Positions 1-62,750 of a DNA stretch of 64,000 bases are shown here, one piece after another; positions within the stretch are counted from its first letter, which is position 1, and every line of letters starts with the position of its first letter. The DNA is taken from NCBI RefSeq assembly GCF_013122565.1, contig NZ_CP053258.1. One strand, written 5' to 3'. The DNA comes from Escherichia coli (GTDB taxonomy: Bacteria > Pseudomonadota > Gammaproteobacteria > Enterobacterales > Enterobacteriaceae). The notes beneath the pieces are model-generated. The model was not told the DNA's origin, did not search any database, and saw only the letters and a program-made list of their open reading frames with translations. A program made the translations under genes and the position numbers.

Positions 1-981
1 CCTGTAGACTGGGCCAGTTTTACCATTGGCGGCGGTACGCCACTGCTGCTTAATGTCGGGCAACTGTCGCGATTGTTTCGCGGGGTGTTTGACGAATTAC
101 AGGTCGATGCGCAGATTTTTAAGGCCATTGAAACATCGCCTTCCGATACCTCTGCCGAAAAAGTCGCGTTGTTGCGCCAGCTTGCGGTAAACCGTGTCAG
201 TATTGGTGTTCAGAGTTTTAACGATCTGGAACTTGCCACATTACACCGCCGCCATAGCACTAAAAATGCCCATCGGGCGCTGGAGCTACTGCGCACGGGT
301 AATTTCCCGATACTCAATATTGATATTATTTACGGTATTCCCGGTCAAACAGCCGCAAGTTTATTGGCGTCGCTTAATCAGGCATTAGATTATCAACCTG
401 ACGAACTGTTTCTGTACCCACTGTATAACATGCCTCGCCAGCCGGATATGTATAGCCTCTATATTGAAGCCCGCGATCGCTTATTGCATGAAGGTTATAC
501 GCAAACGTCAATGCGCCGTTTTGTGCGGGTGAATAATGATTCGGCGGTTGAAAGTTGTGGCTTTGAAAATTCGCTGGCGCTTGGCGCGGGCGGGCGCAGT
601 TACCTGGGCAATTTACATTACTGCACGCCGTGGTCGCAAAACCAGCCTGCATCGCGACAAATTGTCGCGGATTTTATCGCCCGACAAGATAAAACCCTTA
701 TTAACCACGGCTATGTGCTTTCACAAGCAGAAATGAAGCGGCGTTTTGTTATCAAGAATCTCTTTTTCTATAAAGGGCTTTCGTTACGTGATTATCAGCG
801 CCAGTTCTCCTCTGAGGTATTAAGCGATTTTCCCCTGCTGGGCGATTTTATCAAACAAGATTATTGCCACCAGCAGGATAATCGCATTCTGCTCACCGCG
901 CAGGGTTTGGCGCTTTCGGACCAGCTTGGCCCGCTGTTTATTTCCCCGGAAGTTCGCAGGCTGGAGACGCATAAACGATGA
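1..981 (+). CDS. HemN-like radical SAM family protein, 5'-truncated by window edge
   Basis: Reading frame is open from nt 1 (the listed ORF start at 73 is a TTG inside a longer frame); GGGTP motif at nt 31-45 and HemN-type region (VNRVSIGVQSF); the CxxxCxxC cluster would lie upstream of the window; ATGA overlap with next gene. Confidence 0.75.
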   Translation, partial: PVDWASFTIGGGTPLLLNVGQLSRLFRGVFDELQVDAQIFKAIETSPSDTSAEKVALLRQLAVNRVSIGVQSFNDLELATLHRRHSTKNAHRALELLRTGNFPILNIDIIYGIPGQTAASLLASLNQALDYQPDELFLYPLYNMPRQPDMYSLYIEARDRLLHEGYTQTSMRRFVRVNNDSAVESCGFENSLALGAGGRSYLGNLHYCTPWSQNQPASRQIVADFIARQDKTLINHGYVLSQAEMKRRFVIKNLFFYKGLSLRDYQRQFSSEVLSDFPLLGDFIKQDYCHQQDNRILLTAQGLALSDQLGPLFISPEVRRLETHKR

Positions 982-1832
982 CGCTCAAGCAGATCCAGAC
1001 GCTGATTTATCGCGGCGAGATAAAGTCGTGTAATTATCGCTGTGGCTATTGTCCGTTTCATAAACAAGACCGCAATGATAAGCAGCAGGATGAAGCGGCA
1101 TTATGGCGCATGGTTGAGCATTTACCGGCGCTGGGTTCACCGTTAAATGTGTTGATTACACCCTACGGCGAAGCATTGCGTTATCGGTATTATATGGCGG
1201 CGATGGCGGAAATAAGCCGTTATTCCCATGTCCAGGCGGTGGGTATTCAGACCAACGCCTCGTTTAATTTATCCTCGTTGATAGCGACTTTTCAGCACTC
1301 TCAGGGCGATTTAGCAAAGCTGCGGCTGTGGTGTTCATTTCATCCTTCCCAGGTCAGTAAAGAAGTTTTCCTTAAACAGATACTGGCAATTAAGGACGCG
1401 GGGATTAATTGTTCTGTGGGGGCCGTCGCCAACGTAACCGACTACGACACATTCCAGTGGTTACGCGCGCATCTTCCTTCCGATATCTATTTCTGGCTAA
1501 ACGCCAATGAGCGCGATAAAAGGCCCACCAGCGACGAAAGAAATAGCCAGTTTCAGTTGCTGGACCCGCTTTATCCTTTGGAAACCAGCCTCTGGCCTGC
1601 CAATGTTGCGTTTTGTCTCGGCGGCAAAAAGAGCGTGTTTATGAATGCCGAAGGCGATCTCTTCGCCTGTAATATCAGCAAAATTAAAATCGGCAATTTA
1701 TATCAGCAGCAACTTTCATCTCCAGCCTGTATGGCCAGGCACTGCCACTGTTATCTGGCTTATCATCTGCGTCAGGATATCCCGGCCCTCTCACAATTTG
1801 ATGCTGAACGCTGTTTTCGGATCTTCCCTTAA
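978..1832 (+). CDS. Radical SAM protein with N-terminal CxxxCxxC (CNYRCGYC) and Cys-rich C-terminal region (SPASM/twitch-like)
   Basis: ORF translation: SCNYRCGYCPF near N-terminus; C-terminal CNISKIKIGNL...CMARHCHC; 4-nt overlap upstream and 1-nt overlap (TAATG) downstream indicate operon. Confidence 0.7.
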   Translation: MTLKQIQTLIYRGEIKSCNYRCGYCPFHKQDRNDKQQDEAALWRMVEHLPALGSPLNVLITPYGEALRYRYYMAAMAEISRYSHVQAVGIQTNASFNLSSLIATFQHSQGDLAKLRLWCSFHPSQVSKEVFLKQILAIKDAGINCSVGAVANVTDYDTFQWLRAHLPSDIYFWLNANERDKRPTSDERNSQFQLLDPLYPLETSLWPANVAFCLGGKKSVFMNAEGDLFACNISKIKIGNLYQQQLSSPACMARHCHCYLAYHLRQDIPALSQFDAERCFRIFP

Positions 1833-2530
1833 TGATCTGCCGGTTAATCGCGCTCGATTTAGATGGCACATTGCTGAACAGCAAGAAGATGATTTCCCCT
1901 GCGTCGGTTTCGGCACTGCAAAGCGCACAACAGGCAGGCGTGAAGATTATTCTCGCCACCGGGCGTTCGCACAGCGAAGCCCTGCCTTATTACCAGCAAT
2001 TGCAGTTAACCGGGCCGATGATTTGCTGTAACGGCAGCTATCTTTATCATCCGTATCAGCGGCAAATAGTGAATCCGCAACCGCTTAATATTCAGCAGGT
2101 GGAGAAACTGCGAGCATGGTTTTCACTACACTCACTCCAGCCAATTTTGTATACCCACGATGAGTTAACTTTGCAGATAAGCCTGGTACATCGCAAGGCT
2201 TCGTTATTGCGCCAGGCTGAGGAATTTGCCCGGCAAGAATTATCGCTGGCCTGTAGCTGGTCCTGGCATCATCAACTGGATATTACACAGGCGGGGTGTG
2301 AGAAAGGCAAAAGTCTGGCCTGGTATGCACAGCAGCAAAATATCGCTCTGGATGAAATCATCGCCTTTGGCGATAACGATAATGATGCGGGGATGTTGCA
2401 GATGGTAGGGAAAGGTATTGCGATGGGCAATGGTAGCTTTCTGGCAAAAGCCAGCTCTAACTGCGTTATCGGTCACAACAACACTGACGCGATTGCGGAT
2501 TTTCTTTATGCGCAGGGGGTCAGTTCATGA
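1832..2530 (+). CDS. HAD-superfamily hydrolase, Cof-like (HAD-IIB) phosphatase
   Basis: N-terminal DLDGTLL motif, internal GDNDNDAGM motif typical of Cof/YigL-type phosphatases; translationally coupled to the upstream radical SAM gene. Confidence 0.8.
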   Translation: MICRLIALDLDGTLLNSKKMISPASVSALQSAQQAGVKIILATGRSHSEALPYYQQLQLTGPMICCNGSYLYHPYQRQIVNPQPLNIQQVEKLRAWFSLHSLQPILYTHDELTLQISLVHRKASLLRQAEEFARQELSLACSWSWHHQLDITQAGCEKGKSLAWYAQQQNIALDEIIAFGDNDNDAGMLQMVGKGIAMGNGSFLAKASSNCVIGHNNTDAIADFLYAQGVSS

Positions 2531-2554
2531 CGCATCTTATCAGGTCTACAAAAG

Positions 2555-2587
2555 CAAAAAACCTGCCATCGCTGGCAGGTTTTTTAT
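2555..2587. terminator. Bidirectional intrinsic terminator between the HAD gene and typA
   Basis: GC hairpin acctgccatcgctggcaggt flanked by A-run on one side and T-run on the other. Confidence 0.7.
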
Positions 2588-2602
2588 GACTAAAAAACGA
2601 AA

Positions 2603-4426
2603 TTAATCGTCTTTCGGTGCGCGGTTAGCGCGACGACGATCGTTTTCCGTCAGGTGACGTTTACGAATACGGATAGAGGTCGGAGTCACTTCTACCAGTT
2701 CGTCATCATCGATGAACTCCAGAGCTTGTTCCAGAGTCATGCGGATAGGCGGAACCAGAACAACGGCTTCGTCAGTACCGGAAGCACGCATGTTGGTCAG
2801 TTTCTTACCGGTCAGGCAGTTTACAGTCAGGTCGTTAGAGCGGCTATGAATACCGATAATCTGACCTTCGTAAACTTCTGCACCGTGACCGAGGAACAGC
2901 TTACCGCGATCCTGCAGACCGAACAGCGCGAACGCGACCGCTTTACCCTGACCGTTAGAGATCAGTACGCCGTTCTGACGCTGACCCACTTCACCCGGAC
3001 GTACGTCGTCGTAGTGGCTGAAGGTGGAGTACAGCAGACCAGTACCGGAAGTCATGGTCATGAACTCAGAACGGAAGCCAATCAGACCACGGCTTGGGAT
3101 CACGTAGTCGAGACGTACGCGGCCTTTACCGTCTGGATTCATGTTTTTCAGGTCGCCTTTACGTTCGCCCAGCGCCTGCATTACAGAACCCTGATGCTGT
3201 TCTTCAACGTCCAGAGTCACGTTTTCATACGGCTCTTGTTTACGACCGTCGATTTCACGGAAGATAACTTTCGGACGGGATACCGCCAGTTCGAAACCTT
3301 CACGACGCATGTTTTCGATCAGAACAGACAGGTGCAGTTCGCCACGACCAGAAACGCGGAACGCATCGGCGTCTTCGGTTTCTTCTACGCGCAGCGCAAC
3401 GTTGTGTACCAGTTCTTTGTTCAGACGATCCAGGATCTGACGAGACGTTACGAACTTACCTTCTTTACCGCAGAACGGCGAGGTGTTAACGCAGAAGAAC
3501 ATAGAAACGGTCGGCTCATCAACGGAGAGTGCCGGCAGCGCTTCAACGTTTTGCGTGTCGCAAACGGTGTCAGAAATGTTCAGTTCGCCCAGGCCCGTGA
3601 TCGCCACGATATCGCCAGCTTCCGCCAGGTCGGTTTCGATACGTTCCAGACCGAGGTGGCCCAGCACTTTACCGACTTTCGCGTTACGGGTTTTGCCTTC
3701 GCTATCGATGATAGTGACCTGCTGGTTCGGCTTCACTTTACCGCGCTTGATGCGGCCAATGCCGATAACGCCAACATAGCTGTTGTAATCGAGCTGAGAA
3801 ATCTGCATCTGGAACGGACCGTCAAGGTCAACGTCCGGCGCAGGAACGTGATCAACAATCGCCTGATACAGCGGGGTCATGTCTTCAGCCATATCTTCGT
3901 GGTCCAGACCCGCGATACCGTTCAGCGCAGAAGCGTAAACGATCGGGAAGTCCAGCTGCTCGTCGGTCGCGTCGAGGTTAACGAACAGGTCGAATACCTG
4001 ATCCACAACCCAGTCAGGACGCGCGCCAGGGCGGTCAACTTTGTTGATAACAACAATCGGCTTCAGGCCGTAAGCAAACGCTTTTTTGGTTACGAAGCGC
4101 GTTTGCGGCATCGGGCCGTCAAATGCGTCAACCACCAGCAGCACTGAGTCTACCATGGACATTACACGTTCAACTTCACCACCGAAGTCGGCGTGCCCCG
4201 GGGTATCAACGATGTTGATACGGTAATCATTCCATTTGATAGCGGTGTTTTTCGCGAGGATGGTAATCCCACGCTCTTTCTCCAAATCGTTGGAGTCCAT
4301 CACGCGCTCTTGGGTTTCGGCACGAGAGTCGAACGTACCGGATTGTTGGAGCAGCTTGTCTACCAGGGTGGTTTTACCATGGTCTACGTGCGCGATGATG
4401 GCGATATTACGCAATTTTTCGATCAC
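2603..4426 (-). CDS. typA: Ribosome-dependent translational GTPase BipA/TypA
   Basis: 607-aa ORF, N-terminus [26 protein letters not shown] with G1-G4 GTPase motifs; divergent from glnA as in E. coli. Confidence 0.95.
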
Positions 4427-9384: not shown

Positions 9385-10758
9385 TTAAATCACCCGAGAG
9401 AACTGCTGCATCCGCGCTTTCTGGCGCAGATAGGTATCAAAGCACATGCAAATGTTGCGGATCAGCAAGCGACCTTTCGCCGTCACCTGTATTCCCTTCT
9501 CATCCACATCCACCAGCCCATCTTTTGCTAATGGGGCGAGCAGCTTGAGATCTTCCGCAAAGTAATCAGCGAAGTGCAAATCCCACTGTTTCTCAATAGG
9601 GGCGTAATCCAGACGGAAGTTGCAGATGAGCGACTTAATCACATCGCGGCGAATACAGTCATCACGCGTTAGCGCAATACCACGCCACAGCGCGTTGCCT
9701 TGTTCATCCACTTGCTGATAGTACTGCTTCAACTCTTTCTGGTTCTGCGCGTAGCAGTCGCCAATCATGCTGATGGCGGAAACGCCCATCCCCAGCAGAT
9801 CGGTATCGCCCTGAGTGGTGTAGCCCTGGAAGTTACGATGCAGCACGCCTTCACGCTGGGCCACCGCCAGCTCGTCATCCGGACGGGCAAAGTGATCCAT
9901 ACCGATAAACTGATAGCCCGATTGCGTCAGGAAGGCGATGGTTTCCTGCAGGATATCGAGTTTTTGCTGCGGACTCGGCAGGTCAGCATCTTTGATTTTG
10001 CGCTGAGCAGCAAAAATGGTCGGCAGATGCGCATAGTTAAAGACGCTCAGACGGTCAGGGTTTAGCTCCGCCACGCGTTTCAGGGTAAAGGCGAAACTTT
10101 CCGGCGTCTGTTTCGGCAGGCCGTAAATCAGGTCGATGTTGGTGGAGGTAAAGCCAATCTCACGCGCATGGTTAAGCAGCGCAAAGATAAACTCTTCATC
10201 CTGCTCGCGGTTAACCAGACGTTGCACTTCTTTGTTGAAGTCCTGCACGCCCATACTCAGGCGATTAAAGCCCTCGGCGCGTAAATGATCGAGTACATCC
10301 AGTTCGATTTCCCGCGGATCGACTTCGATCGAAATCTCCGCATCGGCATTGAACTGGAAGTTTTCGCGCAGCAGCTTCATCAGGCGGCTGATTTGCGCTT
10401 TATTAAGATACGTCGGCGTTCCGCCGCCCCAGTGCAGCTGGCTGACGTGACGCCCGGCGAACAGCGGTGCACGATGGACGATTTCTTGCTCCAGCGCGTC
10501 CAGATACTGATCGGCCTTGTGCTGCTGGCGAGTAACAATCTTATTACAACCGCAGAAGTAACAAAGCTTATGGCAGAACGGGATATGTACGTAGAGAGAT
10601 AATGGACGCTCAGGATAGCGCGCCACGGCTTGTAAAAACGCCTGTTCGCCGAAGTCTTCTGAAAACTCCAGCGCGGTCGGGTACGAGGTGTATCGTGGCC
10701 CGGAATAGTTATATTTCTGGATCAGGGCCAGATCCCAGTCGATTTGCTGTACAGACAT
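9385..10758 (-). CDS. hemN: Oxygen-independent coproporphyrinogen III oxidase (radical SAM)
   Basis: ORF with CHKLCYFCGC motif and WGGGTPTYL; start trimmed to MSVQQIDWDL. Confidence 0.93.
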   Translation of the reverse strand: MSVQQIDWDLALIQKYNYSGPRYTSYPTALEFSEDFGEQAFLQAVARYPERPLSLYVHIPFCHKLCYFCGCNKIVTRQQHKADQYLDALEQEIVHRAPLFAGRHVSQLHWGGGTPTYLNKAQISRLMKLLRENFQFNADAEISIEVDPREIELDVLDHLRAEGFNRLSMGVQDFNKEVQRLVNREQDEEFIFALLNHAREIGFTSTNIDLIYGLPKQTPESFAFTLKRVAELNPDRLSVFNYAHLPTIFAAQRKIKDADLPSPQQKLDILQETIAFLTQSGYQFIGMDHFARPDDELAVAQREGVLHRNFQGYTTQGDTDLLGMGVSAISMIGDCYAQNQKELKQYYQQVDEQGNALWRGIALTRDDCIRRDVIKSLICNFRLDYAPIEKQWDLHFADYFAEDLKLLAPLAKDGLVDVDEKGIQVTAKGRLLIRNICMCFDTYLRQKARMQQFSRVI

Positions 10759-10946
10759 GCTCACTCCTTCCGATGGCGTCTCTGGCGGCTACGGCGTACC
10801 GGCGGATGCCCGTTTCGGGTCATCAGCCGGTTGCGCAGCCACTTTTGTCGCCGCGACAACCGCTGTAGTTTAACGAATAACCACACCAGATAACATATAA
10901 CCGGAAGGGTTATCAGCAGAACGGGAAGGCCCACGGCGGAAATCCG

Positions 10947-21999: not shown

Positions 22000-22119
22000 A
22001 TGCCTGGCAGTTCCCTACTCTCGCATGGGGAGACCCCACACTACCATCGGCGCTACGGCGTTTCACTTCTGAGTTCGGCATGGGGTCAGGTGGGACCACC
22101 GCGCTACGGCCGCCAGGCA
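22000..22119 (-). rRNA. rrfA: 5S ribosomal RNA
   Basis: Reverse complement matches TGCCTGGCGGCCGTAGCGCGGTGGTCCCACCTGACCCCATGCCGAACTCAG...GGGAACTGCCAGGCAT. Confidence 0.97.
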
Positions 22120-22211
22120 AATTCTGTTTTATCAGACCGCTTCTGCGTTCTGATTTAATCTGGATCAGGCTGAAAATCTTCTCTCATCCGCCAAAACAGC
22201 TTCGGCGTTGT

Positions 22212-25115
<2,904 letters not shown>

Positions 25116-25289
25116 TCACAACCCGAAGATGTTTCACTTCAGAGTTGCGAAAATTTGAGAGACTCACGAACAACTTTCGTTGTTCAGTGTTTCAATTTTC
25201 AGCTTGATCCAGATTTTTAAAGAGCAAAACTTCGCAGTGAACCTTTGCAGGTACACTCTGAAGTATTTTTTATTTAATCACTACAGAGA

Positions 25290-25365
25290 TGGTGGAGCTA
25301 TGCGGGATCGAACCGCAGACCTCCTGCGTGCAAAGCAGGCGCTCTCCCAGCTGAGCTATAGCCCC
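25290..25365 (-). tRNA. alaT: tRNA-Ala (anticodon UGC), rrn spacer
   Basis: rc = GGGGCTATAGCTCAGCTGGGAGAGCGCCTGCTTTGCACGCAGGAGGTCTGCGGTTCGATCCCGCATAGCTCCACCA. Confidence 0.97.
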
Positions 25366-25407
25366 ATAACATGTAGTTAAAACCTCTTCAAATTTGCGGT
25401 GCAAATT

Positions 25408-25484
<77 letters not shown>

Positions 25485-25552
25485 GTAGAGGTTTTACTGC
25501 TCATTTTCATCAGACAATCTGTGTGAGCACTGCAAAGTACAGTTCTTTAAGG

Positions 25553-27094
<1,542 letters not shown>

Positions 27095-51405: not shown

Positions 51406-52206
51406 TTACGATAAATAGAGTTTACGCAGATAATGCGGCACCGCGTCGTCGGCATTAGTACCAATCACTTCCAGCTCGGGATGAAGGTCTTTCAGACGCT
51501 GGTGCGCACTGCCCATAATGCAGCCTTTCCCCGCCATCGACAGCATTTCGGCATCGTTCATCCCGTCACCAAACGCAATACAATCCTTCAGGCTGTAGCC
51601 CAGTTTCTTCGCCACCGCTTCCAGCGCATGGCCTTTTGAAACGCCGCCCGCCATCACTTCCAGACAGGTTAAGGTAGAGAAACTGACGTTGACGCGATCG
51701 CCCCAACGAGCGTTAATCGCCTGCTCCAGCGGCAGCAGTTGTTCATGGGAATCGCAGGTGAAGAACACTTTGCTGACGCCTTCCGGCTCCAGTAATCCAG
51801 GCTCATACAGCGCATATTTGAACACCGCTTCTTTAAAAAAGCGCATCTCTTCCGGGCGATGGCGATTCATAAACCATTCGTCGTCGCGATAAACGTTAGT
51901 AATGATGTCCGGATTGTCGTTGACTACGCCAAACAGATCGCTGGCAATGTCGCGATCCAGGTTATGAGCAAAAATCAGATTACCATCCAGATCGTGAACG
52001 CGCGCACCATTGGAGGTAATCATGTAAGACTTAATCTCCAGATTATCGCGAATTTGCCCCACATCAACGTGGTGACGACCGGTCGCAAACACAAAGTTGA
52101 TGCCGCGCGCGGTGAGCAGCTTCAGGGTTTCTTTGGCGTAAGGGGATAACGTATGGTCGGGAGAAAGTAACGTGCCATCTAAATCAGACGCAACAACCTG
52201 GTACAT
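51406..52206 (-). CDS. yigL: HAD-IIB (Cof-like) sugar/pyridoxal phosphate phosphatase YigL
   Basis: Start set at MYQVVASDLDGTLLSPDHTL (266 aa); GDGMNDAEML motif. Confidence 0.9.
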   Translation of the reverse strand: MYQVVASDLDGTLLSPDHTLSPYAKETLKLLTARGINFVFATGRHHVDVGQIRDNLEIKSYMITSNGARVHDLDGNLIFAHNLDRDIASDLFGVVNDNPDIITNVYRDDEWFMNRHRPEEMRFFKEAVFKYALYEPGLLEPEGVSKVFFTCDSHEQLLPLEQAINARWGDRVNVSFSTLTCLEVMAGGVSKGHALEAVAKKLGYSLKDCIAFGDGMNDAEMLSMAGKGCIMGSAHQRLKDLHPELEVIGTNADDAVPHYLRKLYLS

Positions 52207-52213
52207 AAGAAAT

Positions 52214-53236
52214 TTAAACCTCTGTAGAGCGGTTTCCGCTGGGTGAGTTATGCCTGTTGAAAAAATCAACGATGGCGTGGAGCGCGACTGAGCGCATTGC
52301 GTCCTTTTCAAAAAGGATCTCATGGTAAGCACCTTTAATTACCAACGGCCGTCCTCCTTCGACAGGATGGCCCGCGGCGGTGCGGAGTTCACAAAAACGG
52401 TCATGCATGCGGTTATCCACCACGCGTTCCTCTTCAGCCTGCAAGAGAAGCGTTGGCGTGGCGTCATCACCCGCACCGGCTAACACCTGTTCGCCAGCCA
52501 GAATACTTTCGCGTACCCAATGGTAGGTCGGCCCACCGACGCGAATCGTTGGGTCATCAGCATAGAAGCGTAAGTTACGTCGATATCGCTGTCTGCTGTG
52601 GGTCAGTACGTTGATAGCAAACGGCAACGCGCGCCAGCGCCCGGTGCCTATTGCATAGCCATCACGGAAACGTGGATGCGCTTCGGCCCAGTTGAGGATC
52701 TGCCGTGCCATAAATGACGGCATACGAATCACGATCCCAAACATTGGCGCAGTTAGCGCAATGGCGTCACATACACCTGGATGGCGTTGCAGAAATAATG
52801 TGGAGATCGCACCGCCCATCGAGTGCGCCAGTATATAGCGTTTACGCCACGGACCGGGCTGAACCTCCTGTTGCCAGAATGCCGCCAGATCATCAACATA
52901 ATCATTAAAGCGATTAACATGCCCGAGATGCGGATCGGCTAACAGGCGACCGGAACGTCCCTGCCCGCGATGGTCGATGATTAAGACATCAAACCCCAAA
53001 TGGAACAGGTCGTAGGCCAGTTCCGCATATTTTACGTAGCTCTCAATACGCCCCGGGCAGATGACTACCACCCGGTCATGGTGCTGTGCGCGAAAACGGA
53101 CAAAGCGCACCGGAATGTCATCCACACCAGTAAATTCTGCTTCATCACGCTGACGCCAGAAATCAGTCAGCGGTCCCATGGTAAAAGCAGCAAACGCGTT
53201 TTCTCTTGTTTCCCAGTCTTTTTGCTGCTGAAACAT
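52214..53236 (-). CDS. pldB: Lysophospholipase L2
   Basis: 340-aa ORF with alpha/beta hydrolase GHSMGG nucleophile motif. Confidence 0.95.
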   Translation of the reverse strand: MFQQQKDWETRENAFAAFTMGPLTDFWRQRDEAEFTGVDDIPVRFVRFRAQHHDRVVVICPGRIESYVKYAELAYDLFHLGFDVLIIDHRGQGRSGRLLADPHLGHVNRFNDYVDDLAAFWQQEVQPGPWRKRYILAHSMGGAISTLFLQRHPGVCDAIALTAPMFGIVIRMPSFMARQILNWAEAHPRFRDGYAIGTGRWRALPFAINVLTHSRQRYRRNLRFYADDPTIRVGGPTYHWVRESILAGEQVLAGAGDDATPTLLLQAEEERVVDNRMHDRFCELRTAAGHPVEGGRPLVIKGAYHEILFEKDAMRSVALHAIVDFFNRHNSPSGNRSTEV

Positions 53237-53346
53237 CGGGTAATCTGCCTCTTAAACCACGTAAAATCGTTTTTTTAAGCGTGCCTGACACAACGCTGCG
53301 ACAGTAGCGTATTGTGGCACAAAAATAGACACACCGGGAGTTCATC

Positions 53347-53967
53347 ATGACCTTAGAATGGTGGTTTGCCTACCTGCTGACATCGATCATTTTAAGCCTG
53401 TCGCCAGGCTCTGGCGCAATCAACACCATGACCACCTCGCTCAACCACGGTTATCGCGGCGCGGTGGCGTCTATTGCTGGGCTTCAGACCGGACTGGCGA
53501 TTCATATTGTGCTGGTTGGCGTGGGGTTGGGGACGCTATTTTCCCGCTCAGTGATTGCGTTTGAAGTGTTGAAGTGGGCGGGCGCAGCTTATCTGATTTG
53601 GCTTGGGATCCAGCAGTGGCGCGCCGCTGGCGCAATTGATCTTAAATCGCTGGCCTCTACTCAATCGCGTCGACATTTGTTCCAGCGCGCAGTGTTTGTG
53701 AATCTTACCAATCCCAAAAGTATTGTGTTTCTGGCGGCGCTATTTCCGCAATTCATCATGCCGCAGCAGCCACAACTGATGCAGTATATCGTGCTCGGCG
53801 TCACCACTATTGTGGTCGATATTATTGTGATGATCGGTTACGCCACCCTTGCTCAACGGATTGCTCTATGGATTAAAGGACCAAAGCAGATGAAGGCGCT
53901 GAATAAGATTTTCGGCTCGTTGTTTATGCTGGTGGGAGCGCTGTTAGCATCGGCGAGGCATGCGTGA
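53347..53967 (+). CDS. rhtB: Homoserine/homoserine lactone efflux protein (LysE/RhtB family)
   Basis: 206-aa [30 protein letters not shown]. Confidence 0.93.
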
Positions 53968-53976
53968 AAAATAATG

Positions 53977-54005
53977 TCGGATGCGGCGTAAACGCCTTAT
54001 CCGAC
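53977..54005. repeat. REP element
   Basis: tcggatgcggcgtaaacgccttatccgac between convergent rhtB and rhtC. Confidence 0.7.
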
Positions 54006-54028
54006 TTACTCTGATGACGCGTCTGGCA

Positions 54029-54649
54029 TCAACGCGAAATAATCAAATGAATGCCAAATCCGGCAAATAACGCCCCGGCAAAACCATCAATCCACTTCGC
54101 CAGACGTTGATAACCACGGCGCATTTGCGGCAGGGCAAACAGGCTGGCAACGACGGTAAACCACGCCAGTGTTTCGACAATAATCAACGCGAAAATGCCC
54201 CAGCGCTCGGTGGTGCCGACGTTATCGCCGACAAACAGCGAGAATACCGAACCAAAGTAGATAATCGCTTTCGGATTGGCGAGATTAGTCAGTAAACCTT
54301 TCAGGAAACTGCGCCCGCTTTTCGCCAGCTCGACCTGTGGCGCAGGTGCAGAAACAGCCTCTTTTTTCAGAGCACCACGCAGCATCTGATAACCCATCCA
54401 GCAGAGATACAGGCCACCGCCCACCATAATCAGCGTATGCAGCCAGGCCATTTTTTCGATAATCAAATGCAGGCCAAGCAACGCAATCCCAGCCCAAACC
54501 ATTACGCCGCAGGTAATGCCCAGCACGCCCATCATCGCTTCTTTACGGGAACGACTGACAGCGGTCTGAGAGACAAAAAAGAAATCGGGACCGGGGCTCA
54601 TAAGCGCCACAATGTGCACCATGGCGACGGTGAGGAATAACATCAACAT
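54029..54649 (-). CDS. rhtC: Threonine efflux protein (LysE/RhtB family)
   Basis: 206-aa ORF MLMLFLTVAMVHIVALMSPGPDFFFV. Confidence 0.93.
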   Translation of the reverse strand: MLMLFLTVAMVHIVALMSPGPDFFFVSQTAVSRSRKEAMMGVLGITCGVMVWAGIALLGLHLIIEKMAWLHTLIMVGGGLYLCWMGYQMLRGALKKEAVSAPAPQVELAKSGRSFLKGLLTNLANPKAIIYFGSVFSLFVGDNVGTTERWGIFALIIVETLAWFTVVASLFALPQMRRGYQRLAKWIDGFAGALFAGFGIHLIISR

Positions 54650-54712
54650 ACATTAGACTCGCGGGGGAAACGTTTACGGAGTCTTCATCCTGGCACTTTT
54701 TTATCCTGCTGA

Positions 54713-56542
54713 CTACTCTTCGTCATCGCCATCAACATGTGCACGAATCAGCGCCATAAACGGTTTGCCAAAGCGTTCCAGCTTGCGCATCCCAACGCCG
54801 TTAACGCTGAGCATTTCGCTGGCAGTGATCGGCATCTGTTCAGCCATCTCAATCAAGGTCGCGTCGTTAAACACCACGTACGGCGGGACATTGCTTTCAT
54901 CGGCAATCGATTTACGCAGTTTGCGTAATTTGGCGAACAGTTTGCGATCGTAGTTGCCGCCGAAGGATTTCTGCATCGCTTTCGGTTTGAGCGCCACGAT
55001 ACGTGGCACGGCAAGTTGCAAAGAGGATTCGCCGCGCAGCACCGGACGCGCAGCCTCTGTCAGTTGTAGGGCAGAATGCTGGGCAATATTTTGCGTCACC
55101 AGGCCGAGGTGAATCAGCTGGCGGATCACGCTCACCCAATGTTCATGGCTTTTATCACGGCCCATGCCATAGACTTTCAGTTTGTCATGACCATAGTCGC
55201 GGATACGCTGGTTATTAGCGCCACGAATCACTTCCACCACATAACCCATCCCAAACCGCTGATTCACCCGACCAATGGTGGAAAGGGCAATCTGTGCATC
55301 GGTTGAACCATCGTACTGTTTCGGCGGATCGAGGCAAATATCGCAGTTCCCGCACGGCTCCTGCCGCCCTTCGCCAAAATAGTTCAGCAATACCAGACGA
55401 CGGCAAGTTTGCGCTTCGGCAAAAGCGCCCATCGCATTGAGTTTATGACGTTCGATATCCTGCAACTGCCCCTGCGGCTTCTCTTCCAGGCAACGGCGCA
55501 GCCACGCCATATCCGCCGGATCGTAAAACAGCATCGCTTCCGCGGGCAGGCCATCACGCCCGGCGCGTCCGGTTTCCTGATAATAGGATTCGATATTGCG
55601 CGGAATGTCAAAATGCACCACGAAGCGGACGTTAGGTTTGTTGATGCCCATGCCGAACGCCACCGTCGCCACCACAATTTGCAGGTCATCGCGCTGGAAT
55701 TTCTCCTGCACGTCGGCGCGAATATTATTTTCCAGCCCGGCATGATAGGCCGCCGCGCTGATACCCTTGCTTTGCAGACGCGCGGCGGTGTCTTCTACTT
55801 TCGCCCGACTGTTGCAGTAAATAATCCCCGACTTACCGCGTTGTTCCTGCACGTAGCGCATCAGCTGATCGAGAGGTTTGAACTTCTCCATCAGCATGTA
55901 GCGAATATTCGGACGGTCAAAACTGCTAATTTGAATCAGCGGATCGTTCAGCCCCAGCAGGCGCACGATATCCTGGCGCGTGGTGTCGTCGGCTGTGGCG
56001 GTCAGCGCCATAAACGGCAGCGTCGGGAACCGCTGGCGCAACTGACCGAGCGCGGCATATTCCGGGCGGAAATCGTGGCCCCATTGGGAGATACAGTGCG
56101 CTTCATCAACGGCTAATAACACCGGATTCCAGTGCGCCAGATGCTCAAGAAAGTTATCCAGCATCAGGCGTTCCGGCGCGATATACAGTAAGCGAATTTG
56201 CCCGGTGCGACAGCCTGTCATCACGTCAAGTTGCTGCTCGCGGGTTTGCGTCGAGTTAAGGCACGCCGCCGCCACGCCGTTGGCTTGCAGTTGATCCACC
56301 TGATCTTTCATCAACGAAATCAGCGGTGAAACAACCACAGTAAGGCCGTTTAGCAATAAGGCAGGAATTTGATAGCAAAGGGATTTTCCGCCACCAGTGG
56401 GCATGACAACCAGGCAATCGCGACCGGAAAGCACAGTGTCGATAATTTCTTCCTGGCCGGGGCGAAACTGTTGGTAGCCAAAGGTTTCTTGTAAAACCTG
56501 TTTAGCTCCGGACTCCAGATTCAACACTTCCGCCTGCGCCAC
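54713..56542 (-). CDS. recQ: ATP-dependent DNA helicase RecQ
   Basis: DEAH helicase core ([25 protein letters not shown]), RQC zinc cluster CGNCDIC and HRDC domain; GTG start (alternative GTG two codons upstream at 56548). Confidence 0.96.
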
Positions 56543-56557
56543 ATTCACCCCGATTGC

Positions 56558-56591
56558 CTGAAATAAAAACAGGCGCTATTTTCAGCGCCTG
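56558..56591 (-). terminator. Intrinsic terminator immediately upstream of recQ (ends the pldA / orphan-ORF transcript)
   Basis: Minus strand cagcgcctg... caggcgct-gaaaat-agcgcctg followed by TTTTTATTT, about 15 nt before the recQ GTG. Confidence 0.7.
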
Positions 56592-56611
56592 CGCGAGAAA
56601 CTGCAATGCTT

Positions 56612-57070
56612 TTAGTCTCTGAGAGGGTAATCCTGGATACTGGATTCCAGATTTGTCAGGATCAAAGCGACATCGGCATCCGCCAAACGAAACTCCGCCT
56701 GCCATATATTCTCTGACGTATGAAACGTAGGGCATAGCCCGCAAGCCAGTATCACATTGATAATAATGACATCACCGGAATACCCTGTGTATTCGAACTC
56801 CAGGCATGGCTCGGTAAATTCCAGATTTTTCTCTGGGTAGCCATCGGGAGAAGGGCGCTGCAACAATGTGGTAAACCACCTATGAAGCTTTGTTAAGTCA
56901 TATGTCCCTATTGCCGGATCTATCTTTTCAAACCGCTGATTTCCCTGCGTCACGCCCACTTTGAGGAATAACCAGTTACCATCCCAGAAATTACTGGTAT
57001 CAGGATACTGATACCCCATAACATCCAGCGTCAAAGTAACGGCCAGCTCACTATTGCTTAACGTAATCAT
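56612..57070 (-). CDS. Hypothetical 152-aa cytoplasmic protein, no recognisable family
   Basis: Uninterrupted ORF filling nearly all of the 570-bp pldA-recQ spacer; no TM segments or signal peptide evident; weak SD; not a gene I can place in the K-12 gene order. Confidence 0.55.
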   Translation of the reverse strand: MITLSNSELAVTLTLDVMGYQYPDTSNFWDGNWLFLKVGVTQGNQRFEKIDPAIGTYDLTKLHRWFTTLLQRPSPDGYPEKNLEFTEPCLEFEYTGYSGDVIIINVILACGLCPTFHTSENIWQAEFRLADADVALILTNLESSIQDYPLRD

Positions 57071-57118
57071 AGCATTTGATTTTTAAACAAAAATTAGGTG
57101 CTGGCACTCTACCATGCA

Positions 57119-57988
57119 TTAAAACAGGTCGTTTAGCATAACTCCCACACCGACGCGGGTCTGGTTAAAGTTATAGTCGATGAGCGATTCGCCGTAACCG
57201 CTGTAGACCTGGGTATAAAGACGTACATGTTTGGTGATCGGGTAACTTAAGCCTAACTCCGCGCCGCCGTAGCCGGTGTTCCAGTTGTACTGTCCTTTCG
57301 CACTGAGCACCGCATCACCGAGGTGATAGCCGATTTTAAGCTGGTAGTAACCCATATATTTGGTGATATCCGGGTTATCGTCAGTATTACCCACCACATA
57401 CCACGGCTTCACTTCTACCAGCCAGTTACCGTTTTCTGCCATCAGGCGAGTATAAAGGCGGTTCCAGCTGCGGGAGGTCGGGTCTGAACGCCCGTTAGAG
57501 TCGTGGTTATACCCCATCTCTACATCGCGCAACGTCCAGCCTGCAAAACGGTAATCGGTGGCAAAACCGAGGAACAATTGCGGTTCGTAGTTGGTTTCAC
57601 GAAACGGTGAAGACTCTTCGCTATTGGACAGTTGCCACCAGGATTTTTGCGTATAAGACGCACCCAACACCGAGTTCGGGCCTAAAATCCCACGCCACAG
57701 CGGAAATGCCAGGCTCAACTGAAACTTTACTTCATCCTTACGCGCATTTTCCGCCCAGTCGTAACTGGCAATAGCTTCTTTATTCAGATCGCTGGTTTGT
57801 GTGTAGATGAGGTAGTTGGTGTCATAAGGATAGAGCGTGAACGGATTGTCATGCTCCTGCAGCATATTGGCGATAATACTGCCACGCACCGCTGGCGCGT
57901 CATGCACCTCTTTCACCGTTGCCTCTTGTGCATATACTGCCATAGGCAACATAAACACCGGCAACAACCAGCCCTGCAGAGTCCGCAT
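57119..57988 (-). CDS. pldA: Outer membrane phospholipase A
   Basis: 289-aa ORF with signal peptide and beta-barrel alternating pattern, C-terminal ...VGVMLNDLF. Confidence 0.95.
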   Translation of the reverse strand: MRTLQGWLLPVFMLPMAVYAQEATVKEVHDAPAVRGSIIANMLQEHDNPFTLYPYDTNYLIYTQTSDLNKEAIASYDWAENARKDEVKFQLSLAFPLWRGILGPNSVLGASYTQKSWWQLSNSEESSPFRETNYEPQLFLGFATDYRFAGWTLRDVEMGYNHDSNGRSDPTSRSWNRLYTRLMAENGNWLVEVKPWYVVGNTDDNPDITKYMGYYQLKIGYHLGDAVLSAKGQYNWNTGYGGAELGLSYPITKHVRLYTQVYSGYGESLIDYNFNQTRVGVGVMLNDLF

Positions 57989-58152
57989 CGATCGTGTTCT
58001 CCGTAACGAATTATTGATAAGGTGAATATTTTTCTGCGGGCTATTTTACATACTTAACTCCATAGCCGTTAGTTATCCCTTCCTAAAGTAGAAACCAACA
58101 ACAAAGAAGCATAAAATCAACATTTCATTAACCAATGAAGTGTAAGGATGAT

Positions 58153-58620
58153 ATGTCTGCCGTACTGACCGCTGAACAAGCCCTGAAATTAGTGGGTGAG
58201 ATGTTTGTTTATCACATGCCATTTAACCGCGCATTGGGGATGGAACTGGAGCGTTACGAAAAAGAGTTCGCACAGCTGGCCTTTAAAAATCAGCCAATGA
58301 TGGTGGGCAACTGGGCGCAAAGCATTTTGCACGGCGGGGTCATTGCGTCGGCGCTGGATGTCGCCGCCGGTCTGGTGTGCGTGGGAAGTACCTTAACCCG
58401 CCACGAAACCATCAGTGAAGATGAACTACGCCAGCGACTATCGCGGATGGGGACCATTGATCTTCGCGTCGATTATCTGCGCCCAGGCAGAGGCGAGCGT
58501 TTTACTGCTACCAGTAGCCTGTTGCGTGCAGGCAATAAAGTCGCCGTCGCCCGCGTTGAATTACACAATGAAGAACAGCTTTATATTGCCAGTGCCACCG
58601 CCACCTATATGGTAGGTTGA
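58153..58620 (+). CDS. yigI: Hotdog-fold (4HBT/PaaI-type) thioesterase YigI
   Basis: Start set at [17 protein letters not shown] (155 aa). Confidence 0.88.
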
Positions 58621-58671
58621 TAACGTAAAAGCAGGTAAACTGCTGTTACCAATTAAAAATGAGTATTCCCG

Positions 58672-59559
58672 ATGGATGCAAAACAAACGCGGCAGGGCGT
58701 ATTACTCGCTCTTGCCGCTTATTTTATTTGGGGTATTGCGCCAGCGTACTTCAAGCTGATTTACTACGTGCCCGCCGATGAGATCCTGACGCATCGCGTG
58801 ATCTGGTCGTTTTTCTTTATGGTGGTGCTGATGAGCATTTGCCGCCAGTGGTCCTATTTAAAAACGCTGATTCAGACGCCACAGAAAATTTTTATGCTGG
58901 CAGTCTCTGCCGTGCTGATTGGTGGCAACTGGCTACTGTTTATCTGGGCGGTGAACAATCACCATATGCTGGAAGCGAGCCTTGGTTACTTTATTAACCC
59001 GCTGGTGAACATTGTGCTGGGGATGATTTTCCTCGGCGAGCGATTCCGCCGGATGCAATGGCTGGCGGTGATTCTGGCGATATGTGGCGTGTTGGTCCAG
59101 CTGTGGACTTTTGGTTCGCTACCTATTATCGCGCTGGGGCTGGCATTTAGTTTTGCCTTCTACGGCCTGGTGCGCAAGAAGATTGCGGTAGAAGCACAAA
59201 CCGGCATGTTAATTGAAACCATGTGGCTGCTGCCCGTGGCAGCGATTTACCTGTTTGCTATTGCCGACAGCTCAACCAGCCATATGGGGCAAAACCCGAT
59301 GTCGCTGAATTTACTGCTGATCGCCGCCGGTATTGTCACTACCGTACCGCTGTTGTGTTTTACTGCAGCTGCGACACGCCTGCGTCTCTCAACGTTAGGC
59401 TTTTTCCAGTATATTGGCCCGACGCTGATGTTTCTGCTGGCTGTGACGTTTTATGGTGAAAAACCGGGTGCCGATAAGATGGTGACTTTCGCCTTTATTT
59501 GGGTGGCGCTGGCAATTTTTGTGATGGATGCGATTTATACGCAGCGTAGAAAAAGTTAG
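58672..59559 (+). CDS. rarD: EamA/DMT-family transporter RarD
   Basis: 295-aa ten-TM ORF MDAKQTRQGVLLALAAYFIWGIAPAYFK. Confidence 0.93.
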   Translation: MDAKQTRQGVLLALAAYFIWGIAPAYFKLIYYVPADEILTHRVIWSFFFMVVLMSICRQWSYLKTLIQTPQKIFMLAVSAVLIGGNWLLFIWAVNNHHMLEASLGYFINPLVNIVLGMIFLGERFRRMQWLAVILAICGVLVQLWTFGSLPIIALGLAFSFAFYGLVRKKIAVEAQTGMLIETMWLLPVAAIYLFAIADSSTSHMGQNPMSLNLLLIAAGIVTTVPLLCFTAAATRLRLSTLGFFQYIGPTLMFLLAVTFYGEKPGADKMVTFAFIWVALAIFVMDAIYTQRRKS

Positions 59560-59605
59560 GCATTAACATGGGTAGGCCATTTAAAAAGCCTACCCACTGA
59601 CTTAT

Positions 59606-59923
59606 CTATCTTTTTTTGAAAAAAATTAAGATAAGAAAAAGTACGATATTTGTTACAGGAAATACACCCAAAACTCCCCAGTACTTACTCCATCCTAGAG
59701 ACATTGTATATCTACCAAGGATTTGACAAAACCCAAAACTTAACCCTATACCTATACTTCTTAAATTTAATGTCGTAGTCAGGCTTAAAATAAATAGAAC
59801 AAGGATGGTAATAGCCCACCACAATAACCACGCCTTAACAAAATCAGATTTTTTGCTGTAAGGTTCTTTACCCAAGAACAACTGCCAAAAATTACCATTT
59901 TCCATATAGAAACCATTCACCAA
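59606..59923 (-). CDS. Small AT-rich inner membrane protein (two or three TM helices)
   Basis: 105-aa ORF in strongly AT-rich DNA; hydrophobic segments WLLWWAITILVLFILSL and VLGVFPVTNIVLFLILIFF; may correspond to one of the K-12 yigF/yigG small membrane genes. Confidence 0.5.
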   Translation of the reverse strand: MVNGFYMENGNFWQLFLGKEPYSKKSDFVKAWLLWWAITILVLFILSLTTTLNLRSIGIGLSFGFCQILGRYTMSLGWSKYWGVLGVFPVTNIVLFLILIFFKKR

Positions 59924-60109
59924 AAGTATTATTCATGGAAACAAATATTATTTAATTATATTTAGTCCCCCTCAATAAAAACTTACACACTCTAAATTAC
60001 TACTGTATAGTTATCAATACAAAGGCTGTCATATTGCATGGATATAACAAGCATATGCTCTAAATAATGTATATACACTTAAACCAATCATATACTAAAC
60101 AATATAAAA

Positions 60110-60496
60110 ATGTTTAAACCATCTATTAAAAATATGTTTTACCCATCCACACTTGAGCGTTTATCACGTTTGCAGTTCATAATTTACACATTAATATCAT
60201 GGACAATATTAATAACTTTGAATGATATCAACCTGGCTTTGAGTTTCATTCTGGTCATCACTAATACGTATGTGAATATCAATATCGGAGCTAAAAGAAT
60301 AAGAGATACTGGATGTAAGGCAATCTACTTCGTATTGATTTCATTGGGTTTGACACTTTTTTCTATTATCTCTGCAGCAATTGAAGGGGTGAGATGTGAT
60401 TCATTAAGCGTCCAACTGAACGTGGCATGGATAGTATTCACAACAATTATGTTATCTGCGATTCCCTCGGCTAAAATGTCGCTGTCAGCACACTAA
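60110..60496 (+). CDS. Small AT-rich inner membrane protein, DUF805-like (IGAKRIRDTG motif)
   Basis: 128-aa ORF with three hydrophobic segments and an R-x-R-D-x-G motif reminiscent of DUF805 proteins; divergent from the preceding ORF. Confidence 0.55.
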   Translation: MFKPSIKNMFYPSTLERLSRLQFIIYTLISWTILITLNDINLALSFILVITNTYVNINIGAKRIRDTGCKAIYFVLISLGLTLFSIISAAIEGVRCDSLSVQLNVAWIVFTTIMLSAIPSAKMSLSAH

Positions 60497-60520
60497 CTTA
60501 CTCACAGCGACATCGTATAG

Positions 60521-61471
60521 TTACAGCCAGTTCTTCCGCTTAAAGTACAGATACGGTGCCAGGCCCGCGAGGATCATAAAGATAATCGCGCCTGGGTAGC
60601 CGAAGCTCCACTTCAGTTCTGGCATAAACTCAAAGTTCATCCCGTAGCTGGAAGCAACCAGCGTTGGCGGCAGGAACACGACGGATACCACCGAGAAAAT
60701 TTTGATGATGCGGTTCTGCTCGATGTTGATAAAACCCATTGCCGCCTGCATCAGGAAGTTCACCTTCTGGAACAGGGATTCGTTATGCGGCAGCAGGGAT
60801 TCGATATCTCGCAGGATTTCACGCGCCTGCTCCAGTTGACCACCCGGTAAACGCGCCTTACGCACCAGGAAGTTGAGCGCACGCTGGGTATCCATCAGAC
60901 ACAGGCGCACTTTCCAGCCGATATCTTCCAGTTCCGCCAGCGTGGAGAGCGCCTCGTCGTACTCATCGCCCTGATGCCCTTCCATAATCACCCGACTCAA
61001 CTGCTCCAGGTCGCTATAGATATTTTCAATTTCATCTGCCAACTGTTCGATTTTGGTTTCGAACAGATCCAGCAGCAGCTCGTAGGCGTTACCGTCTACC
61101 ATCGACTGGCTACGAGCACGCATACGATACAGACGAAAAGCGGGCAGTTCACGCTCACGCAGAGTAAACAGACGACCATCACGGATGGTAAATGCCACAG
61201 TGGAGTTACCGGCGTGATCTTCCGCATCTTCAAAGAAGAAGAAGGAGTGAATATGCAGGCCGTCGTCGTCTTCAAAGAAACGTGCCGATGCTTCGATGTC
61301 TTCCAGTTCCGGGCGGGTTGCCAGGCTCTGGCCAAGTTCAGATTGTACGCGCAGTCGCTCGTCGTCGTCCGGTTCGACAAGATCAATCCATACTGCATTT
61401 ACAAGGGGTTGTGACTCTTCGACTTCCAGCCGGGTCAGTCGGTTATTTTCCAGTTGAAATGCGCTCAGCAT
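60521..61471 (-). CDS. corA: Magnesium/cobalt transport protein CorA
   Basis: Start set at [16 protein letters not shown] (316 aa); C-terminal YGMNF motif and two TM helices. Confidence 0.96.
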
Positions 61472-61840
61472 GACCGGGACTCCCAATGCTTAAAATATCG
61501 GACAGTTCGGTGGGCACACAGAAACAAATTGGGTTTCAGACCATTAAACAGCCTGACTCAGCGCGACGGGAAAAATTGAGGTCGCTGACAACCGCTAAGG
61601 CTATCAGCAAAAAGGGATAGCCTTAGGAGTTGATCCTGGATGACAGGATAGTGAGCCAGTATCTACTGGGTGTGTCCAAGGCGAATGTCCTCTTAGAGTG
61701 ATCGTGCGCGCATGTTACGCCAGCAAAATTTTGCCGTCAACACGCAACAGAACACCACAGAACAATAGTTGAACTTCGCGCTTTTTGGTACTCGTCAAGG
61801 TCGCTAACAGGATAAAAAAATCCCACATCCAGGACCTATA

Positions 61841-62605: not shown

Positions 62606-62640
62606 AATGATAGTTTTGTGTCAGATACTAAATATGGTGC

Positions 62641-62676
62641 TGATGCCGGATGCGACGTAAACGCCTTATCCGGCCT
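62641..62676. repeat. REP element
   Basis: tgccggatgcgacgtaaacgccttatccggcctac. Confidence 0.75.
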
Positions 62677-62750
62677 ACATGACGTTGCAATTTATTGAAT
62701 CTGAATGATTTTTAGGCCAAATAAGGTGTGCAGCACCGCATCCGGCAACG

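Follow-up and report, generated by a model that had tools for sequence, protein, structure and literature searches.

Several described bacterial systems direct their chemistry to a single position of a protein. In the S6/RimK and LysW/LysX pairs, the ligase acts on a carboxylate of a terminal Glu; it joins an amine to that residue, and more enzymes work on the tethered group. During β-lysylation of elongation factor P (EF-P; EpmA/EpmB/EpmC), a radical S-adenosylmethionine (SAM) enzyme prepares a small amine, which a dedicated ligase attaches to one residue of a single protein whose gene is close by. Here we describe a gene cassette of Escherichia coli whose distal half opens a 64,000-nt stretch of contig NZ_CP053258.1 (hereafter the window, meaning the whole stretch analyzed) and that combines genes for a RimK-type ATP-grasp ligase (STM4014), two radical SAM proteins (STM4012 and STM4011), two phosphoesterases (STM4013 and a haloacid dehalogenase, HAD) and a leucine-rich repeat (LRR) protein (STM4015). 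The three genes in the window are very likely the distal half of one horizontally spread six-gene pathway with a five-gene core. Our preferred, tentative reading is that the cassette chemically modifies the invariant C terminus of its own LRR protein.

The likeness to LysW-LysX/ArgX and RimK-S6 consists in a RimK-family ligase gene next to a protein with a conserved acidic C terminus ending in Glu. Yet LysW is a 54-aa zinc ribbon ending EDWGE, whereas STM4015 is a folded LRR protein (281 aa; 275–407 aa across the family) ending M-L-T-E, and the two resemble each other only in the terminal Glu and an upstream acidic/aromatic patch. The partners differ as well: two radical SAM enzymes and two phosphoesterases in the cassette, as opposed to a kinase, a reductase, an aminotransferase and a releasing hydrolase in the LysW system, and the cassette is devoid of LysZ/Y/J/K-type partners, an M20 hydrolase or a release enzyme. 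The analogy to EF-P, drawn from general knowledge and in logic only, would reconcile the small-molecule flavor of STM4011 and the HAD enzyme with a conserved terminus. However, EF-P is served by an aminomutase and an aminoacyl-tRNA synthetase paralogue rather than by twitch/HemN-like radical SAM proteins and an ATP-grasp ligase, and is modified on a Lys side chain rather than a C-terminal Glu. No characterized system has the composition of the cassette, which by analogy would act most like a carrier-protein or C-terminal-tagging system supplemented with radical SAM tailoring.

A six-gene cassette of gut bacteria

A first-pass annotation, made from the letters of the window and a list of its open reading frames (ORFs), had described three tightly coupled genes at the left edge, encoding a HemN-like radical SAM protein, a radical SAM enzyme with a Cys-rich SPASM/twitch-like C terminus and a Cof-type HAD hydrolase; NCBIfam assigns all three families accordingly. 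The first gene is the 3′ part (326 codons) of an STM4012-family member (positions 1–981, plus strand), with its 5′ end beyond the window edge. It overlaps the STM4011-family gene (978–1832, plus strand; 284 aa) in an ATGA at 978–981, and the latter overlaps the Cof-type HAD-IIB hydrolase gene (1832–2530, plus strand; 232 aa, with a shortened cap domain) in a TAATG at 1830–1834; both overlaps, as reported in the annotation, are evident from the ORFs and the sequence. The annotation had also given locus-tag-only family names of the STM4011/STM4012 type, which NCBIfam and RefSeq do use, and had placed the rest of the locus to the left of the window. Indeed, in a homologous E. coli locus (L001; MCJCHV-1), from which we read the upstream half of the cassette as the window holds three of the six genes, there are three further genes as well as the N terminus of STM4012. 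This six-gene block lies between ompL and typA, in the order (RefSeq annotation) STM4015, STM4014, STM4013/SEN3800 family hydrolase, STM4012, STM4011 and Cof-type HAD.

A pattern scan with the STM4011 alignment over 100,044 species-representative genomes returned at least 518 matching stretches. The loci analyzed are the best 80 of these; the six families were mapped onto all of their ORFs, and gene order was assessed in the 69 loci with sufficient upstream sequence. The order STM4015-STM4014-STM4013-STM4012-STM4011 was colinear in 60 of these 69 loci and recurs in Clostridia, Bacteroidota and Enterobacteriaceae, E. coli included. Carriers among the best 80 loci were mostly gut Clostridia and Bacteroidota, with names including Lachnospiraceae, Eubacterium, Hungatella, Peptococcaceae, Oscillospiraceae, Bacteroides, Parabacteroides, Phocaeicola, Tannerellaceae and Superficieibacter. 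Exceptions to the order comprised one swap (STM4014-STM4015-STM4013-STM4012-STM4011), one joint inversion of the STM4015-STM4014 pair, and a small number of incomplete sets. Even in rearranged cassettes (L030, L055), the STM4015 and STM4014 genes remain neighbors.

Gene fusions connect further members. In 54 of the 80 loci, STM4011 is C-terminally fused to a HAD-IIB domain (DxDGT in 36/52 and DxEGT in 10/52 fused domains), while the Enterobacteriaceae carry a separate HAD gene after STM4011; no HAD was detected in 23 of the best 80 loci. The ATP-grasp protein, in turn, is fused to STM4013 in the protein clusters P0198 (17 member sequences) and P0289. Together, fusions and synteny imply that the six products very likely act in one pathway and that the HAD enzyme of the window belongs to it. 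The flanking genes, in contrast, change completely from one lineage to the next (gyrBA, a glyA-like gene, ABC transporters, typA). All-against-all clustering of 2373 flanking ORFs revealed no conserved extra gene for a transporter, regulator or peptidase, but only generic clusters (histidine kinase/response regulator, ABC, MATE) present in at most 20 loci each. Likewise, no small ORF (15–70 aa) upstream, downstream or inside the cassette was conserved beyond three closely related loci, and the precursor peptide or transporter that the first-pass annotation had suggested to look for thus has no counterpart conserved across loci. Given its colinear order amid unrelated flanks, the cassette forms a module of its own, which has been transferred across phyla of gut bacteria.

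In a few Clostridia, locus-specific genes are inserted between cassette genes (L065, 7473–8621; L066, 7527–8564; L077, 6786–8407; L034, 9390–9973). Read by eye, the products resemble an AAA-ATPase, a Pro-rich protein with repeats, an alpha/beta hydrolase and a toxin-antitoxin pair. The inserts vary among loci and seem to have no connection with the cassette, where insertions are apparently tolerated between STM4013 and STM4012 or ahead of STM4011. In L068, the STM4011-HAD protein is unusually long, but it yielded no informative extra domain.

The C terminus of STM4015 and its neighboring ligase

All 77 locus-encoded STM4015 homologues end in [M/L]-[L/I/F/V]-Thr-Glu, with the stop codon immediately after, as the last part of a tail with the consensus E-[E/D]-[Y/W]-[D/N]-G-E-[I/V]-[Y/W]-x-[Y/N]-[P/A]-M-L-T-E. 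In a collection of 5.8 billion proteins, the 120 best STM4015 database clusters, a set overlapping with the 77 homologues, end in TE without exception. No other ORF among the 5635 of 87 loci has the [ML][LIVFM]TE ending. In a tandem STM4015-STM4015 fusion (P0065; 18 members), the tail is lost on the internal copy and kept at the free end, and at one locus two tandem STM4015 genes, both tailed, stand beside single-copy enzymes.

The STM4015 gene of L001 (10994–11839 of that locus, left of the window) encodes a 281-aa protein with only faint LRR matches by sequence. Its AlphaFold model (mean predicted local distance difference test, pLDDT, 93.4) is an LRR solenoid whose best structural match is PDB 2RA8 (44% identity, TM score 0.86, E 1e-23), followed by TIR1, COI1, NLRC4 and RanGAP-type repeats. 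With 2RA8 (Bacteroides fragilis Q64V53), the STM4015 family has one solved structure, of a protein longer than that of E. coli (351 residues); it was deposited by structural genomics without a function, and no mention of 2RA8 or Q64V53 was found in the full-text searchable literature.

The adjacent gene product, STM4014, has as its best characterized relatives MptN (7.9e-10), the RimK family (2.4e-9), LysX and CofF (E 8e-10 to 4e-7). MptN, RimK, LysX and CofF all ligate onto a terminal glutamyl-type carboxylate. STM4014 has weak Pfam matches (ATPgrasp_YheCD, 1e-4; ATPgrasp_ST; TTL), and the signatures of an ATP-grasp enzyme are present: the nucleotide-binding K138 as well as D284, E297 and N299 are invariant in 29 homologues, the latter three within a Mg-binding motif D-x12-E-x-N. 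An article on graspetide phylogenomics did not cover the STM4014 family. An invariant free C-terminal Glu beside a RimK-type ligase is, by analogy, the arrangement of S6/RimK and LysW/LysX.

If the cassette modifies STM4015, this protein would be the substrate or carrier, and its LRR domain would dock the enzymes, as a leader peptide or carrier protein does elsewhere. STM4014 would activate the terminal Glu carboxylate as an acyl phosphate and join it to an amine (cf. RimK-S6 and LysX-LysW), and the STM4013-STM4012-STM4011-HAD module would make a phosphorylated small-molecule partner or tailor the tethered group. Herein, STM4013 would cleave a phosphodiester or phosphomonoester, STM4012 and STM4011 would perform radical C-H chemistry (methylation, cross-linking, dehydrogenation or decarboxylation), and the HAD enzyme encoded in the window would catalyze the last step, a dephosphorylation. 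The cassette comes with neither a peptidase nor an exporter, and a cytoplasmic protein carrying a modification is therefore a likelier outcome than a compound that is released. The first-pass annotation had broadly suggested a "small molecule or modified peptide/nucleotide"; judged by conservation, the "peptide" would most likely be the invariant C terminus of the LRR protein. A bolder extension, which we consider possible but doubtful, is that the cassette represents a new kind of protein-templated radical SAM pathway: the LRR protein would present Thr-Glu, the ATP-grasp enzyme would prime the terminus, and the radical SAM enzymes and phosphoesterases would build the modification; the outcome would be a cofactor or warhead bound to the protein, or else a small molecule for whose assembly the protein is the scaffold.

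Tailoring enzymes and alternative explanations

STM4013 (~280 aa) matches Pfam Sulfatase (7e-16), as do 29 of 29 family members, and has a minimal alkaline-phosphatase/sulfatase fold with conserved metal ligands (LD[ST]LR, SDHG). In place of the sulfatase C-x-P-S-R, it carries T-[YW]-P-S-H, with the Thr invariant in 29/29 aligned homologues. A Thr nucleophile is typical of nucleotide pyrophosphatases/phosphodiesterases (NPP) and phosphoethanolamine transferases. The invariant Thr therefore predicts a Thr nucleophile in STM4013, for which formylglycine maturation would be unnecessary.

Among the curated equivalog models, STM4011 (978–1829) scores above the cut-off only for its own, NF038073 (301.1 bits; cut-off 200). 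It combines a CxxxCxxC core (CNYRCGYC; C18-x3-C22-x2-C25) with a Cys-rich C-terminal auxiliary-cluster domain of the Cx9-15Gx4C type (C213-x12-G-x4-C231 ... C251-x4-C256-x-C258), the hallmarks of SPASM/twitch proteins, while its Pfam SPASM match is marginal (E 0.017). As sequence searches of solved structures were nearly uninformative for both STM4014 and STM4011, the latter was placed by fold comparison alone, which assigned it to the SPASM/twitch clade. Members of this clade act on peptides, proteins, nucleotides or nucleotide-sugars. STM4011 shares 12–16% sequence identity with SkfB, anSME, PqqE, SuiB, BlsE, BtrN and MoaA, and differs from all of them in being fused to, or preceding, a HAD-IIB phosphatase. 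The latter, in the window, matches TIGR00099 (186.7 bits; cut-off 137), with DLDGT at residues 9–13 and GDNDND at residues 180–185. Its nearest equivalog is the pyridoxal phosphatase YbhA (PRK10530/NF007821), to which it scores 219.3 bits, under the cut-off of 274, aligning in two stretches that skip ~28 cap-domain profile positions.

The STM4012 fragment (326 of ~412 aa) matches NF006067 with 368.7 bits (4e-110; profile positions 88–424 of 427), just under the curated cut-off of 380 bits because ~86 N-terminal codons lie outside the window; the full-length homologue of L001 (412 aa) bears the STM4012-family name in RefSeq. The GGGTP motif and the downstream regions are encoded in the window, and the CxxxCxxC motif lies to its left. 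Against HemN (1OLT), the family profile aligns over its full length (4e-55), and against the class C methyltransferase NocN with 1.7e-33.

Several observations weigh against a modification of STM4015. The mechanism proposed above rests on conservation and family resemblance. STM4014 scores far under the curated cut-offs of RimK, LysX, MptN and CofF (e.g. 30.3 bits against TIGR02144, the LysX/ArgX model, with a cut-off of 275.6) and finds only marginal ATP-grasp matches among solved structures. Much of the acidic/aromatic tail packs on the LRR body in the AlphaFold model (pLDDT 85–95), leaving only about the last seven residues of STM4015 as coil. On one metagenomic contig (P0281), the single contrary case, STM4015 reads through into STM4014, so that the terminus would be buried; this read-through probably reflects a stop-codon error. 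Some loci have only STM4012 and STM4011-HAD (L052, L054) or STM4011-HAD alone (L017, L028), and STM4015 is absent within the contig at L068 and L074. The enterobacterial HAD is ~24% identical to the fused HAD domains; the HAD step appears conserved in position and subfamily, less clearly in descent. Besides, Cof-type HAD-IIB enzymes normally work on small phosphorylated metabolites, and the nearest folds of STM4011 include BlsE, MoaA, viperin and DesII, which have nucleoside or nucleotide substrates; this suits a step on a small molecule no less than one on a protein.

The strongest competitor, possible though in our view less probable than a modified C terminus, is a small-molecule or cofactor pathway. 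Here, five enzymes would turn a phosphorylated metabolite, be it a nucleotide, a nucleotide-sugar or a compound resembling a pterin or deazaflavin, into a modified product, with the ATP-grasp enzyme adding a glutamate-type tail in the manner of MptN and CofF, and the LRR protein acting as scaffold, chaperone, regulator or product binder whose C terminus serves for binding. The presence of these two cofactor-tailing ligases among the nearest characterized relatives of STM4014 speaks for such a pathway, even though STM4014 remains far under their cut-offs. So do the two phosphoesterases (a Thr-nucleophile alkaline-phosphatase-fold enzyme and a Cof-type HAD), the STM4011-HAD fusion, which points to a small phosphoester intermediate, the existence of gene sets without the LRR gene, and the nucleotide-acting fold neighbors of STM4011. 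The latter protein also has no RRE or other leader-binding domain, nor an RRE/PqqD-like N-terminal extension, its cluster motif beginning at residue 18. However, a small-molecule pathway leaves unexplained the universal -TE ending of STM4015 (~200 sequences) and the retention of the tail at only the free end of P0065; STM4015/STM4014 adjacency survives rearrangements; and neither a transporter nor a link to a known cofactor pathway is conserved in the flanks. Since enzymes acting on peptides, on proteins and on nucleotides all occur among the fold neighbors of STM4011, these cannot separate this pathway from a modified STM4015.

An anti-phage or conflict system, in which a viperin-like radical SAM enzyme would make a modified nucleotide, the HAD and alkaline-phosphatase-fold enzymes would process it and the LRR protein would act as sensor, is improbable. 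STM4011 has weak matches to viperin models (NCBIfam, E 0.006; PADLOC pVip, E 0.009), but the scores of 15.7 (NF038283) and 13.4 bits (PADLOC pVip) contrast with a cut-off of 180, and its conserved auxiliary-cluster Cys motif is absent from viperins. The fold of STM4015 is like that of NLR/TIR1-type receptors, and 5 of 29 homologues, namely the long forms of Bacteroidota, have a WGR domain at the N terminus, a domain known elsewhere from PARP-type sensors of DNA breaks. The accessory, patchy occurrence of the cassette and the low G+C content of its 5′ half would likewise fit a defense function; yet PADLOC returned no meaningful match for the six proteins, the flanks are housekeeping genes (gyrBA, glyA-like, typA) rather than defense islands, and the cassette contains no STAND NTPase or nuclease effector.

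Marginally less probable still is a role in tetrapyrrole or heme metabolism, with STM4012 resembling HemN/ChuW/HemW and STM4011 resembling AhbD/NirJ, and both acting anaerobically on porphyrin propionates. The alignment of STM4012 with HemN does extend over the N-terminal Y-x-Y-P region as well as the C-terminal domain. Set against HemN and the HemN-like class C radical SAM enzymes (NocN/NosN, ChuW/HutW, HemW), STM4012 has the complete HemN architecture, with Y/H residues preceding the cluster motif, a GGGTP, the conserved Glu/Arg positions and a C-terminal domain; moreover, the carriers are gut anaerobes, many of them heme-dependent. However, in STM4012 homologues an invariant Leu (C49-x3-C53-x2-C56-N-L58) takes the place of the fourth HemN Cys (CxxxCxxCxC). 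The fragment scores 89.4 bits against TIGR00538 (HemN; cut-off 325), with the match region covered despite the truncation, 108.2 against HemW (205), 76.1 against HemZ (321) and 73.3 against HutW/ChuW (400). No AhbD/NirJ family is found among the NCBIfam matches of STM4011. The gene context is non-heme: ATP-grasp, alkaline-phosphatase-fold, HAD and LRR proteins have no known role in heme pathways, and the window has a genuine hemN of its own (9385–10764), at a distance of 7 kb. Among the outcomes that would overturn it, the first-pass annotation had named a failure to detect radical SAM domains and a match to a well-characterized pathway such as a heme or cofactor system; radical SAM domains were detected, and no such pathway was matched.

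A sulfatase maturation pair, with STM4011 making formylglycine on STM4013, was rejected as highly improbable: the Pfam match and the proximity to the sulfoquinovose (yih) genes in E. coli and Salmonella would favor it, but Thr occupies in 29/29 homologues the position where C/S-x-P-x-R has the formylglycine precursor, STM4013 is without the sulfatase subdomain at its C terminus, STM4011 is matched by no anSME family model, and the yih neighborhood is not conserved beyond the Enterobacteriaceae. A maturation system for RiPPs (peptides made by the ribosome and modified after translation) was also rejected, with no conserved precursor ORF, RRE, peptidase or exporter at the loci.

The cassette in E. 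coli and Salmonella

The three window genes occur in 157 of 5426 complete E. coli genomes (~3%), always on the chromosome and in single copy, in line with the accessory gene set proposed in the first-pass annotation; the cassette is also found in Salmonella, including strain LT2. Relative to the window, the E. coli alleles form groups of 96.8%, ~94% (including LF82 and ST648) and ~92.7% identity. K-12 lacks the genes: as the annotation had it, MG1655 carries yihL-yihM-yihN between typA and ompL, on the opposite strand at the same junction. The G+C content of the cassette's 5′ half is 40–45%, compared with 52–54% in the flanks.

The core gene typA (bipA; 2603–4426, minus strand) lies outside the cassette and marks the variable junction, as is evident from the ORF and homologous loci. 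The annotation had the cassette converge on typA across a common terminator, and indeed a single hairpin (2555–2586; 14 pairs, with an A-run on one side and a T-run on the other) lies between the opposing stop codons of the HAD gene (2530) and typA (2603), corresponding to one terminator-like site where 0.3 would be expected. The piece from 2556 to 2600 is conserved in cassette-free E. coli genomes, K-12 among them. This hairpin probably acts as an intrinsic terminator in both directions and forms the cassette's right edge.

Relative to MCJCHV-1, the closest allele, most of positions 1–2600 differ by 0–2 mismatches per 100 nt, but 31 mismatches fall within 1201–1600 (middle of STM4011) and 41 within 1901–2200 (HAD cap region), peaking at 24 per 100 nt. 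At the protein level, 18 of 20 HAD differences lie inside residues 75–113. Such a mosaic points to recombination among the allele groups or to diversification of the HAD cap. In two of the 157 carriers (NZ_OZ546938.1, H64; IMT16316, NZ_CP023815.1, H90), an IS1 element is inserted inside the cassette, implying that it is dispensable in those two strains.

From 2600 to 64000, the window is collinear with the E. coli core (typA, glnALG, hemN, CsrC, Spot 42 and polA; an rrn operon at 22002–27094; metE/fadB/ubiB/ubiD/trkH; recQ/pldA/corA/uvrD). Among the 5426 complete genomes, the best identities of successive segments were 98.7%, 98.4% and 97.3%, and by sequence the window probably represents a lineage absent from that collection. 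Of positions 52001–64000, only 96% align to the best E. coli matches, split into three pieces; the top match to this part has a small accessory islet between rarD and corA, made up of a YPO3983 family protein, DUF943 and a fragment of corA.

The genes themselves are not new, their families being cataloged by NCBI under locus-tag names and one structure having been deposited. Yet no functional study of the STM4010–4015 families was found in the searchable full-text literature. Mentions were limited to a sigma-54 holoenzyme binding site, mapped by chromatin immunoprecipitation within Salmonella LT2 STM4013 and antisense to the ORF (PMC3844500), and to an entry for STM4015 in a table of genes under positive selection specific to serovars (PMC2784778).

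The two best-studied enteric bacteria, as represented by Salmonella LT2 and by pathogenic E. coli such as LF82 and ST648, thus encode two radical SAM enzymes without an assigned reaction. For annotation, our analysis implies that the Cof-type HAD beside typA is to be considered a member of the cassette and not a generic sugar phosphatase. More generally, what was a locus-tag-only annotation becomes a hypothesis centered on the last two residues of STM4015 and testable in hosts amenable to genetics. If true, it would reveal a new enzyme-substrate logic for radical SAM and ATP-grasp enzymes, with an LRR domain as a built-in "leader", and a new post-translational modification in gut bacteria; if the product is diffusible instead, it would be a new microbiome metabolite.

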